Origin: a virus
Taxonomy: Duplodnaviria > Heunggongvirae > Uroviricota > Caudoviricetes
DNA length: 12,017 bases
IMG/VR virus record: IMGVR_UViG_2526164649_000015
Strand: one strand, 5' to 3'
Shown here piece by piece: positions 2,395 to 5,150 of the stretch. Below the pieces are notes generated by a model, which worked only from the letters and a program-made list of their open reading frames with translations, was not told the DNA's origin and made no database searches. The position numbers and the translations under genes are program-made. The first letter of the stretch is position 1. Every line of letters begins with the position of its first letter.

Positions 2395-2830
2395 ATGAAG
2401 CGTGAAGAAATCGCTGATCTGATGGCGTTTGTCGTCGTTGCAGAGGAGCGTAGCTTCACTCGCGCAGCAGCCCGCCTGAGCATGGCGCAGTCAGCTTTAA
2501 GCCAGATAGTGCGCCGTATAGAAGAACGATTGGGATTGCGGCTTCTGACGCGAACCACGCGCAGCGTTGTACCCACTGAAGCGGGCGAGCATCTTTTGTC
2601 TGTTCTTGGCCCTATATTGCATGACATAGATTCTGCCCTGACATCCCTGAGCGATCTGCAGAACCGCCCATCCGGGACAATACGTATTACTACTGTAGAA
2701 CATGCAGCAAAAACGATATTGTTACCAGCCATGCGCACATTCCTGAAATCGCATCCTGAAATTGATATTCAGCTTACCATTGATTATGGTTTGACCGATG
2801 TCGTTTCTGAACGTTTTGATGCAGGCGTCC
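2395..2830 (+). pseudogene. LysR-family transcriptional regulator, truncated after about 145 codons by an IS3-family element
   Basis: N-terminal helix-turn-helix typical of LysR regulators (FVVVAEERSFTRAAARLSMAQSALSQIVRRIEERLGLRLLTRTTR), then the start of the effector domain ...SERFDAGV. From 2831 the frame reads through an IS terminus to a chance stop at 2904. Possibly pgrR/ycjZ-like (context only). Confidence 0.8.
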
Positions 2831-3683
2831 TGAGGTGTACTGGCAATAGCGGACACTACCATTTGTTCTTTTTTAAGCAGCCATCTGATGATATTTTTCC
2901 CTGAAGGCTGCCGGGGAGATATTCCCCAGACGAGAGTGACGACGCTGACGATTGTAGAAAATCTCAATGTATTCCCGTATTACTGAGATGGCTTCATCCC
3001 GGTTATTAAAACGATAGTGGCTCAGGCTCTCATTTTTCAGCGTTCCCCAGAAGCTTTCCATCGGAGCGTTGTCGTAACAGTTACCTTTACGCGACATTGA
3101 TGTTTTCAGACCAGACTGCTCCTGTATGACCCGGTAATCGTATGCGCAGTACTGTGAACCTCGATCAGAGTGGTGGATTAGCCCGGCAGGTGGGCGCTGG
3201 CTCCTGAGCGCCATAAACAGGGCTTTACCTGTCAGCTCTTTTGTCATGCGCTCTCCCATGGCGTAGCCGACAATTTCGCACGTATAAACATCTTTGATGC
3301 CAGCGAGGTACAACCATCCCTCCTGTGTGGCAACATACGTCAGGTCCGCCACCCAGACCTGATTTGGTGCTGTAGGAGCGAACGTCTGGTTCAGCAGATT
3401 TGGCGCAACTGGCAGATTGTGGTTCGGGTTCGTAGTCGCTCTGAACTTGCGTTTCTGCTTACAGCGTAGCCTTAGCTCCTTACGAAGACGTGCCAGTCGG
3501 TCACGACCAACGATGATGCCATTCTCTGCCAGCTCCGTCTGGAGCCGCCGGGTTCCATATGTTTCGCGAGTGCGGATATGTGCCACCTTAATCTCCAGTT
3601 TTAGCCGCTCATCACTTTGTTTTCTGTCTGAGGGTTCATGCTGTACCCAGTTGTAATAACCGCTCCTGGATACACCAAATACC
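2831..3683 (-). mobile_element. IS3-family insertion sequence, 5'-truncated fragment (orfB and one terminal inverted repeat only)
   Basis: Terminus TGAGGTGTACTGGCAATAGCGGACAC at 2831 resembles IS3-family inverted repeats; it encodes a DDE transposase OrfB on the minus strand; orfA and the other terminus are missing because the IS911-like element begins at 3684. Exact IS name not determined. Confidence 0.75.
2873..3683 (-). pseudogene. IS3-family OrfB (DDE transposase catalytic domain), N-terminally truncated
   Basis: Product ...NQVWVADLTYVATQEGWLYLAGIKD...HHSDRGSQY...NAPMESFWGTLKNE... carries the D, D, E catalytic pattern. The first 8-9 codons of track ORF 2873..3709 are read from the IS911 repeat and are not part of the gene. 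Confidence 0.8.
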
Positions 3684-3724
3684 TGAAGTGGCACACTGAA
3701 TTTGGCCACCTGAACAGAGGTGAT

Positions 3725-4057
3725 ATGCTCACCTCAGAACAACACAGGTGCTCCAATGAAAAAAGAAATTTTAGCGCAGAGTTTAAACGCGAATCCGCTC
3801 AACTGGTTGTTGACCAGAAATACACGGTGGCAGATGCCGCCAAAGCTATGGATGTTGGCCTTTCCACAATGACAAGATGGGTCAAACAACTGCGTGATGA
3901 GCGTCAGGGCAAAACACCAAAAGCCTCCCCCATTACCCCGGAACAAATTGAAATCCGTGAGCTCAGGAAAAAGCTACAACGCATTGAAATGGAGAATGAA
4001 ATATTAAAAAAGGCTACCGCGCTCTTGATGTCAGACTCCCTGAACAGTTCTCGATAA
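3725..4057 (+). CDS. IS911-like OrfA (helix-turn-helix/leucine-zipper protein); canonical start out of frame, alternative in-frame ATG at 3725
   Basis: The ATG at 3756 followed by A6 (3759-3764) is one base out of frame with the body; canonical IS911 OrfA begins MKKRNF (ATG plus A7, from memory). In-frame ATG at 3725 would give [20 protein letters not shown]...; stop at 4055-4057. Confidence 0.6.
4006..4012 (+). other. A-AAA-AAG -1 frameshift heptamer of the IS911-like element
   Basis: tt[a aaa aag]gct in the OrfA frame, the canonical IS911 slip site. Confidence 0.75.
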
Positions 4058-4909
4058 TCGGGAAACTCAGAGCGCATTATCCTGTGGTCACACTCTGCCA
4101 TGTGTTCGGGGTTCATCGCAGCAGCTACAGATACTGGAAAAACCGTCCTGAAAAACCAGACGGCAGACGGGGCTGTATTACGTAGTCAGGTACTTGAGCT
4201 ACATGGCATCAGCCACGGTTCGGCCGGAGCAAGAAGCATCGCCACAATGGCAACCCGGAGAGGCTACCAGATGGGACGCTGGCTTGCTGGCAGGCTCATG
4301 AAAGAGCTGGGGCTGGTCAGCTGTCAGCAGCCGACTCACCGGTATAAACGTGGTGGTCATGAACATGTTGCTATCCCTAACTACCTTGAAAGGCAGTTCG
4401 CCGTGACCGAGCCAAATCAGGTGTGGTGCGGTGATGTGACCTATATCTGGGCGTACCTCGCCGTTGTTCTCGACCTGTTCGCAAGAAAACCAGTGGGCTG
4501 GGCCATGTCGTTCTCGCCGGACAGCAGGCTCACCATGAAAGCGCTGGAAATGGCATGGGAAACCCGTGGTAAGCCCGGCGGGGTGATGTTCCACAGCGAT
4601 CAGGGCAGTCATTATACGAGCAGGCAGTTCCGGCAGTTATTGTGGCGATATCAGATCAGACAGAGTATGAGCCGGCGCGGAAACTGCTGGGATAACAGCC
4701 CAATGGAACGCTTCTTCAGGAGTCTGAAGAACGAATGGATGCCGGTGGTGGGTTACGTAAGCTTCAGCGAGGCAGCTCACGCCATAACGGACTATATCGT
4801 TGGATATTACAGCGCACTAAGACCGCACGAATATAACGGTGGGTTACCCCCAAACGAATCGGAAAATCGATACTGGAAAAACTCTAACTCGGTGGCCAGT
4901 TTTTGTTGA
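4012..4909 (+). pseudogene. IS911-like OrfB (DDE transposase), disrupted by a frameshift at a G4 run and a 5-codon in-frame gap in the catalytic core
   Basis: The -1 frame after the slip site reads [53 protein letters not shown] and stops at 4183-4185. The rest of the transposase ([12 protein letters not shown]... to stop 4907-4909) is in the next frame, joined at GGGG 4169-4172. Core reads [14 protein letters not shown] against DLTYVATQEGWLYLAGIKD in the neighbouring OrfB. Confidence 0.75.
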
Positions 4910-4917
4910 CCACTTCA

Positions 4918-5150
4918 GAATGGATGTCGTGGAGATGGTATCCGCAGATAGCGCCGCACTTCTGAAGAAAATCAAATGGCCTGATAAGGTTAAAAACCTT
5001 GAGTTGCTTGGGCGCCATGTTTCTGTTCAGGCGTTTAAAGACAACGTCAAAAATGAAGTGACTGGCGCTGACGGAGGACCAGTCAGAACAGAAATTACCA
5101 AATTAACGCCTGAGCAGGCCGCAGAGGTGTATAGAAAAATGATGGGCTAA
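4918..5150 (+). pseudogene. phage terminase small subunit, C-terminal fragment (N-terminus lost at the IS911-like boundary)
   Basis: Frame is open straight from the IS terminus; product ...[33 protein letters not shown] resembles terminase small-subunit C-termini as I recall them; stop 5148-5150 lies 2 bp before the terminase large-subunit ATG. No helix-turn-helix N-terminal domain present. Confidence 0.45.

Follow-up and report, generated by a model that had tools for sequence, protein, structure and literature searches.

Layered insertion-sequence activity as the probable origin of a pgrR-IS600-IS911-prophage junction in Shigella flexneri

Introduction

How did part of a chromosomal regulator gene come to lie next to part of a phage terminase gene, with insertion sequences (IS) in between? 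The question is raised by IMG/VR virus record IMGVR_UViG_2526164649_000015, a stretch of 12,017 nucleotides (nt) that we call the window, over its full length. In it, the 5' part of the LysR gene pgrR is followed by a fragment of IS600, by IS911 and by the 3' part of terS, the gene of the terminase small subunit. We propose that, with good probability, the window preserves successive layers of ordinary IS activity at the ycjY-pgrR / Rac-site prophage region of Shigella flexneri.

The ycjY-mpaA murein-peptide operon is repressed by PgrR, and the genus Shigella is placed within E. coli by GTDB. Five elements, IS1, IS2, IS4, IS600 and IS911, have expanded in all Shigella, reaching 229-348 copies on each chromosome, and they knock out genes and are associated with deletions (Hawkey et al. 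2020, PMC7373316).

Results

At 100% identity, the window corresponds to positions 3803-15819 of AKMV01000020.1, from the draft assembly GCA_000268085.1, which a published table assigns to Shigella flexneri 2850-71 (PMC6397287). The parts that meet at its central junctions are the following.

2395-2830, plus strand: first 436 nt of pgrR (ycjZ), with the HTH domain and the beginning of the LysR substrate domain
2831-3683, minus strand: IS600 fragment, IS600 positions about 1265-413, with the right inverted repeat (IRR) end and most of orfB
3684-4917, plus strand: IS911, 1234 bp, with both terminal repeats, flanked by acc and gaa
4918-5150, plus strand: last 233 nt of terS, aligned to 9001-9233 of relative L002, inside terS annotated at 8679-9233

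A first-pass annotation, made from the letters alone, had drawn much the same map. It had the LysR gene end at an IS3-family terminus at 2831, and pgrR indeed stops after nt 436 at the IRR of IS600. It had that element cut at 3683 by an IS911-like one, and 853 bp of IS600 do give way to IS911 at 3684; the terminase sequence that it saw to the right is the end of terS, directly after IS911. Its claim that chromosomal backbone is joined here to a prophage remnant also holds, with ycjY-pgrR on the left and terS-terL on the right. The triplets around IS911, given as acc and aga, do differ, but the right one is gaa, since aga takes in the last A of the element.

This order is no assembly chimera. 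UGYT01000001.1 (GCA_900457175.1), a single contig of 4.80 Mb, has the identical order over all three junctions at 99.8% identity, and the passage from the IRR of IS911 straight into gaatgg of terS recurs in three independent read-set assemblies (L012-L014). The assembly support that the first-pass annotation wanted checked thus exists. The arrangement of the window was not found in any complete E. coli genome.

Window positions 2160-2830 are 99.4% identical to E. coli ycjY-pgrR, and the RefSeq names at this E. coli match are ycjY and pgrR. Of pgrR, 436 of 900 nt are kept, encoding residues 1-145 alone; a full PgrR/YcjZ of 299 amino acids (aa), with HTH_1 and a complete LysR substrate-binding domain, is absent, and the gene is a pseudogene fragment. 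Its open reading frame (ORF) reads into IS600 as far as 2904, producing a 169-aa chimera found in S. flexneri 2850-71 and J1713 only. IS600 begins at 2831 with its IRR end (tgaggtgtactggcaatagc, minus orientation). Positions 2830-3686 share 99.5-99.9% identity with annotated full IS600 copies, whose RefSeq label is 'IS3-like element IS600 family transposase'; this near-identity and the IRR, one of the two TG...CA terminal repeats, identify the 853 bp as IS600. Its orfB matches NF033516 (E 2e-98), while orfA and the orfB start are gone from this truncated copy. The triplet tga at 3684-3686 can be assigned to either IS600 or IS911.

The left inverted repeat (IRL) end of IS600 is not in the window; it is present beside the 3' part of pgrR in other S. 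flexneri assemblies. A search with the C-terminal half of PgrR, then cluster listing, recovered 'partial PgrR' proteins of S. flexneri, and one of them (P0045) is the read-through translation of the IS600 IRL fused to PgrR residues 146-299. With a slash marking each joint, its contigs (L040-L046) open with ...ctcaggctacctca/tcc/gtctgggtgg, or in a longer form ...ggaaggagtgtccgttaaactcaggctacctca/tcc/gtctgggtgg. The window junction reads gcgtcc/tgaggtg, against gcgtccgtctgg in intact pgrR. Both copies of the 3-bp target-site duplication of IS600 are therefore present, at two different loci: in the window TCC adjoins the 5' half of pgrR, and in L040-L046 and L047-L055 it adjoins the 3' half. That the IRL end, TCC and pgrR nt 437-900 occur elsewhere shows that IS600 hit pgrR as an ordinary simple insertion, with TCC duplication, which was split later.

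Several leads turned out to be separate. The contigs behind P0007, the first protein to emerge from the PgrR C-terminal search, hold E. coli frameshifts or nearby IS1 insertions and not the IS600 junction. The best E. coli matches to 2830-4920 are plasmids of the enterohaemorrhagic (EHEC) type, in which IS911 is interrupted by a full IS600, the opposite nesting and an unrelated junction; in NZ_CP027386.1 (2501-5021 of the locus) and about 20 like plasmids the complete IS600 sits inside IS911 at ~157, near toxB. An O121 strain has an IS600 in a tail gene of a related prophage, which is again a separate event.

The ancestral neighbours of the junctions, which the first-pass annotation proposed to find by mapping the flanks onto closed relatives, are present in the closed enteroinvasive E. 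coli (EIEC) CFSAN029787. There the order is undisturbed: tyrR-tpx-ycjG-mpaA-...-ycjY-pgrR-mppA-ynaI-ynaJ-uspE-fnr-ogt-abgTBAR-smrA-dgcM-zntB-dbpA-ttcA, and to the right of ttcA a prophage (intR, xisR, early genes, hok, tRNAs, lysis, terS, terL, head, tail) followed by sitDCBA-uspF-ompN. The window is collinear with this order and equally oriented, but lacks about 40.4 kb that separate pgrR nt 436 from terS nt 322 there.

The other half of pgrR, which the first-pass annotation also proposed to look for, lies beside a full IS600 at a prophage next to yebY in nine of the ten closed Shigella chromosomes compared. These nine read ptrB-exoX-holE-yobA-yebZ-yebY-(integrase, excisionase, ..., gam, recE')-IS600-pgrR 3'-mppA-ynaI, and in eight of them uspE-fnr-ogt come after ynaI. 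In the five of the nine on which IS600 and pgrR alignments were run, IS600 is complete (1265 to 1) but for an inserted 1.3-kb IS, and pgrR covers nt 434-900. The tenth chromosome, CP026098, has another context, with sitA near mppA. The 1.3-kb insert, carried by the IS600 at 6624-9197 of the CP026765.1 locus and likewise in L047, L051, L054 and L055, is an IS3-family element at IS600 372-377; it encodes a 108-aa HTH protein and a 206-aa rve protein and is not IS911.

Published locus tags of S. flexneri M90T place tpx at 1314, sitDCBA at 1345-1348, dbpA at 1769, fnr at 1779 and ynaJ at 1781; dbpA-fnr-ynaJ are in reversed order, just ahead of a phage integrase (1793), a CopC homologue (1796) and ptrB (1800) (PMC4229854 Table S1). 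Since fnr is known in S. flexneri, a plain deletion, as suggested by the collinearity of the window, becomes doubtful. Each half of pgrR is still at an IS600 end, which argues for their parting by recombination between IS600 copies. As the relatives show, the mppA-fnr block was moved and inverted by IS600 recombination rather than lost. The route may have been two nested inversions (A-s-M-B to A-M'-s'-B to A-M-s'-B) or an excision with re-integration; either fits.

IS911 extends from its IRL at 3684 (tgaagtggcacac) to the end of its IRR at 4917 (gttgaccacttca). It is 98-99% identical to annotated copies and has both terminal repeats. Its flanks, acc at 3681-3683 and gaa at 4918-4920, lack the 3-bp target duplication; an IS911 without duplication is still IS911, and the flank mismatch reflects later rearrangement. 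It differs from 1249-bp copies by two single-base indels and by 15 bp deleted in frame from orfB. The deletion drops TGKRW directly after the first catalytic D and is common to the left IS911 copy (copy a) of CP024470. The indels, a 1-nt deletion at the orfA start that puts the start codon out of frame and a 1-nt insertion, occur only in this draft. The A6G slip site is kept (aaaaaag, 4008-4014), and the indels together with the 15-bp deletion leave orfA and orfAB disrupted in this assembly. By its sequence the element is a member of IS911, probably not autonomous. Over its whole length it bears three markers of copy a of CP024470: 273c, 501t and the 15-bp deletion.

To the right of IS911, two states occur. 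In J1713, CP100042 and CP024470 the same pgrR'-IS600'-IS911 series runs into ggttgacg, in the middle of a phage early gene of 118 aa. Where phages without an interruption have ctgtccg-ggt-tgacg, S. flexneri has IRR/ggttgacg; the IRR/ggt junction is common to J1713, CP100042, CP024470 and CP026803. IS without target duplications arise by recombination between IS copies or by adjacent deletion (PMC11708052), and an IS911 between acc of IS600 and ggt of the phage is the footprint expected of either IS911 x IS911 recombination or adjacent deletion. The left side of CP026803.1, another Shigella chromosome (3998-6323 of the locus), is different, with tpx-ycjG and then a full plus-strand IS600 inside the 5' part of IS911; mpaA through pgrR are missing, an independent erosion of the same region. 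In the draft GCA_964204545.1 (CAXNPK010000075.1, 5990-6080 of the locus), an IS911 of opposite orientation stands at the left of the same ggt, ctgtccgggt/tgaagtggtcaac, the latter being the reverse complement of the IRR. In many other E. coli and S. sonnei drafts, contigs end at the ggt point (cluster P0124).

The second state is that of the window, and CP024470 relates the two. This chromosome, of the serotype 3a strain 71-2783, is backed by PacBio data and optical mapping (PMC5754485). Two stretches of it match the window at 99.9%, over 670-4918 and 4891-12017, and are separated by 5.5 kb collinear with the intact phage: 4.27 kb of phage-collinear DNA (early genes, hok, a full IS600 and 103 bp just upstream of terS), then a second, inverted IS911. 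The IRL tip of this copy lies at exactly the gaatgg of terS that the IRR touches in the window. The two junctions thus read gttgaccacttca/gaatgg and gtgtgccacttca/gaatgg. The 5.5-kb stretch is absent from both the window and UGYT01. Over window 4918-12017, one single-base indel is the sole difference among the window, UGYT01 and CP024470, and because of this near-identity the polymorphism at the terS junction must be very recent.

A third terS allele has the IRL tip followed by an extra ccacttca, its terminal 8 bp, before gaatgg (Logan contigs SRR27743026_384, 1-36, and SRR35312039_408, 1-16). Both terS-junction alleles and this 8-bp tip duplication occur in independent read-set assemblies. 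The ccacttca allele is what an IS911 inserted 8 bp inside another IS911 tip would leave, with a 3-bp duplication cca.

Some routes between these alleles can be set aside. Homologous exchange leaves each flank at its IS end, so IRR/gaa cannot derive from IRL/gaa that way, and recombination between the inverted IS911 copies does not reach the window junction. Replicative inversion fails as a model for the two inverted IS911 copies: by reasoning, it predicts an inverted duplicate (ttc or gat) that does not equal ggt. Synapsis of the IRR of copy a with the IRL of copy b, followed by normal strand transfer 3 nt outside the end, predicts on the same kind of reasoning an inversion with a tandem dimer, unlike the product.

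The prophage itself is well placed by its relatives. Positions 4918-5945 are 99.6% identical to the terS 3' and terL 5' parts of the intact prophage in CFSAN029787, and over terS, terL and the baseplate and tail-fibre genes the window follows the intact prophages of that strain collinearly at 98-99.6% identity. After the remaining tail genes, relatives carry sitDCBA. From the gene order of CFSAN029787, the prophage is assigned to the Rac (ttcA) site. The other features of the window are these.

1-790, minus strand: 3' part of ycjY (alpha/beta hydrolase), cut by IS2, 99.9% identical to the uninterrupted ycjY of S. flexneri J1713 (8943-9732)
791-2120, plus strand: complete IS2, with TnpA (NF006928, E 3e-83) and TnpB (NF006918, E 2.5e-218)
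2121-2257, minus strand: 5' part of ycjY, in continuation of the same J1713 alignment
5153-5945, plus strand: first 793 nt of terL, its ORF continuing to 6022 over an internal deletion joint
5942-5945, no strand: deletion joint without IS, 13.28 kb absent, 4-nt microhomology
6149-12017, plus strand: residual baseplate, spike and tail-fibre genes of the prophage, by Pfam tags and by gene order in relatives L006, L007 and L008

The 13.28-kb internal deletion runs from the 3' end of terL (codon about 264) through head, tail sheath and tape-measure genes to a baseplate protein gene. Its joint was mapped on L018, where window 5181-5945 corresponds to 1-765 and window 5942-7000 to 14043-15101; it creates a 289-aa chimeric ORF (5153-6022). 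The deletion is common to UGYT01, CP024470 and about 20 other contigs (L007 and L008 included), and from this wide sharing it is older than the IS911 polymorphism. With the left arm absent, terS and terL truncated and 13.3 kb of morphogenesis genes deleted, the window does not hold a functional lambdoid prophage. It is a non-inducible remnant, still the anchor of sitABCD, and pgrR and ycjY are dead. In J1713 (15434-16157) and CP100042 (10147-10844) the phage remnant stops after hok at an IS1 joined to ydbD-ynbABCD; this side follows the order of K-12, and another large loss or rearrangement bounded by IS1 is implied in that lineage (late phage genes, sit, uspF through ydbC).

At 9048 the window is one 'a' short of UGYT01 and CP024470, which turns the baseplate J gene (413 aa) into ORFs of 249 and 155 aa. 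This is probably a draft sequencing error, although it could be a true frameshift.

IS2 in ycjY is a clean simple insertion. NF006928 and NF006918 are matched over their full length, the two ORFs are there, and a 5-bp target duplication CGCCC stands at 786-790 and 2121-2125, as read against the empty site in J1713. The element is present in CP024470 and UGYT01 and absent from S. flexneri J1713 and CP100042, and on this pattern it is of use as a lineage marker. In relatives, the mpaA product has 164-168 aa, against 242 aa in E. coli, and IS600 adjoins mpaA. Broken pgrR and ycjY with a short mpaA are consistent with decay of the whole module.

Discussion

A history in four steps would lead to the window. 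IS600 entered pgrR at codon 145/146, with the TCC duplication that both halves still display. The IS600 borne by pgrR would then have recombined with another copy, carried by the recE region of a related second prophage at yebY, parting the halves of pgrR. As a result, pgrR 3', mppA, ynaI, uspE, fnr and ogt would have come to lie inverted, about 430 genes off, beside a full IS600; relatives display this outcome, and the path to it is our reconstruction. In a third step, an IS911 insertion near position 412 would have struck the IS600 copy that stayed at pgrR 5', and the left end of IS600 would have been lost with the phage early region up to the GGT triplet in the 118-aa phage gene. The junction is there in the strains named above, and the loss is most simply pictured as recombination with a second IS911 in the same orientation.

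In the lineage of the window, a further 5.5 kb would then have gone: phage early genes, hok, the full IS600, 103 bp of late-region DNA and the inverted IS911. The IRR tip of the first IS911 would have moved to the exact terS nucleotide formerly at the IRL tip of the lost copy. The states before and after exist in CP024470 and in the window. For the mechanism, the best fit would be an IS911 insertion into the tip of another IS911, a slippage over 8 bp in which one repeat was lost, then recombination between IS911 copies of the same orientation. This putative route accounts for all three terS alleles. On the sequences compared, the prophage DNA to the right of IS911 was lost stepwise, a true loss unlike that on the pgrR-fnr side.

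Set against this history, what the first-pass annotation said of mechanism stands in part. It was right that IS911 lacks its target duplication and wrong to extend this to IS600, whose second TCC lies at the other locus. Its view of rearrangement rather than simple insertions fits the present layout, which later IS rearrangement produced, but not the arrival of IS600 in pgrR, which was a simple insertion. The choice between deletion and inversion, which it left open, resolves into both, at different junctions: pgrR 3'-mppA-fnr moved and inverted, phage DNA right of IS911 lost.

Other explanations can be weighed on the same evidence. Junctions misthreaded through repeated IS copies in a short-read or 454 draft would be a natural suspicion, given a 15.8-kb source contig that crosses three multi-copy IS elements, single-base indels (in IS911 and at 9048) not found in relatives, and the same IS911 with a different right neighbour in another strain. 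Yet UGYT01000001.1 keeps the order across all three junctions, L012-L014 end in the IRR straight on gaatgg, and the other right neighbour truly exists, in chromosomes closed separately (CP024470, CP100042), so that we give such chimeras hardly any credence. Much less far-fetched, but still improbable, is that one or two plain IS-adjacent deletions removed everything from pgrR nt 436 to terS nt 322, some 40 kb that include mppA, fnr, ttcA and the left arm of the phage, with neither inversion nor relocation. The perfect same-orientation collinearity with CFSAN029787 on both sides of the IS pair speaks for it. A plain deletion, though, offers no way for the second half of a split insertion to survive at another place in the genome, and in S. 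flexneri the pgrR 3' half does exist with the IS600 IRL and TCC, followed by mppA-ynaI-uspE-fnr; fnr is present and has been studied in M90T, with a tag about 430 genes from those of tpx and sit.

The last step is where a rival gains more ground. The IRR tip of the left IS911 and the IRL tip of the inverted downstream copy might have reacted in one event, either a microhomology-mediated deletion or transposase nicks with joining, without a third IS911. We regard this as a tentative alternative. The two tips are direct repeats, identical over the terminal 8 bp ccacttca and at 19 of 30 positions overall (counted by eye); the left-copy markers run along the entire IS911 of the window; some non-homologous step is required, as homologous recombination cannot swap the IS end of a flank; and the ggt site may show the same pattern. 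Against it, we found no precedent in the literature consulted, an 8-bp repeat 5.5 kb apart is a poor substrate for slippage, the 8-bp tip-duplication allele better fits an IS911 inserted into the tip of another, and UGYT01 has the same junction with a canonical IS911. The layered IS history that we favour has its own difficulties. The data do not fix the order of the second and third steps, and the relocated block is known from other Shigella and, by its tags, inferred for M90T, rather than from 2850-71 or its two closest closed relatives. Neither reciprocal IS911 junction (IRR/acc-tgacaca and ccgggt/IRL) was found in any locus retrieved, and the protein collection has none of the chimeric TerS-IS911 proteins predicted for an ancestor with a simple insertion at the terS junction. 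Moreover, the window shares the 15-bp deletion with copy a of CP024470 but its junction with UGYT01, whose IS911 is canonical. These internal markers clash with a single origin of the window-type junction and so imply recurrence or gene conversion.

Taken together, IS911 copies of opposite orientation at identical nucleotides (gaa of terS, ggt of the 118-aa gene) and the tip-duplication intermediate raise a more speculative idea, to which we assign a lesser chance: own-end targeting may repeatedly erode Shigella prophages with nucleotide precision, or an end-replacement deletion not described before may be at work. If own-end erosion is true, it would be field evidence for an IS911 targeting that is so far a phenomenon of plasmid assays; in any case the orientation-flipped junctions offer a small lead on target choice in the IS3 family. 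The locus is also a worked example that an IS without visible target duplication need not mean deletion. Calls of pseudogenes and gene loss from draft Shigella contigs can misjudge losses, as fnr and mppA were retained here, and very close strains of S. flexneri document that trimming of the sit-linked Rac-site prophage continues. Beyond the locus itself, the significance is slight.

The closest known system is the IS-driven decay of Shigella genomes (PMC7373316). The same five IS families act in the same organism, with IS-broken genes, IS nested in IS, IS-bounded deletions and inversions, and variation from strain to strain at single loci; nothing differs in kind, and only the history of pgrR and the Rac-site sit prophage is added here. 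IS without duplications (Ngan et al. 2024, PMC11708052) are matched by the unequal flanks of IS911 and by the IS600 triplets at two distant loci. In contrast to those cases, the reciprocal product was recovered here, so that IS600 recombination, and not deletion, is what the loci show. Likewise, the Rac-site (ttcA) sitABCD lambdoid prophages and their ipaH-linked relatives in EIEC and Shigella have terS, terL, baseplate and tail-fibre genes collinear with the window, whose copy, unlike theirs, is without the left arm, 13.3 kb of head and tail genes and part of terS and terL, and makes no functional phage.

IS911 is reported to insert adjacent to its own termini (Loot et al. 2002 EMBO J, cited in PMC9333248). 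In agreement with the targeting of own inverted repeats by IS911 and IS30 described there, IS911 is found here at or in the tips of other IS911 copies, and the 8-bp tip duplication is compatible with a cca duplication. The product given there is an IRL-IRR tip-to-tip junction, none of which was seen here, and it comes from a demonstrated reaction, whereas ours is deduced from end products in natural isolates. Altogether, the kind of event is already known and belongs to the ordinary, well-documented decay of Shigella genomes; the flipped IS911 junctions are its sole mildly unusual feature.

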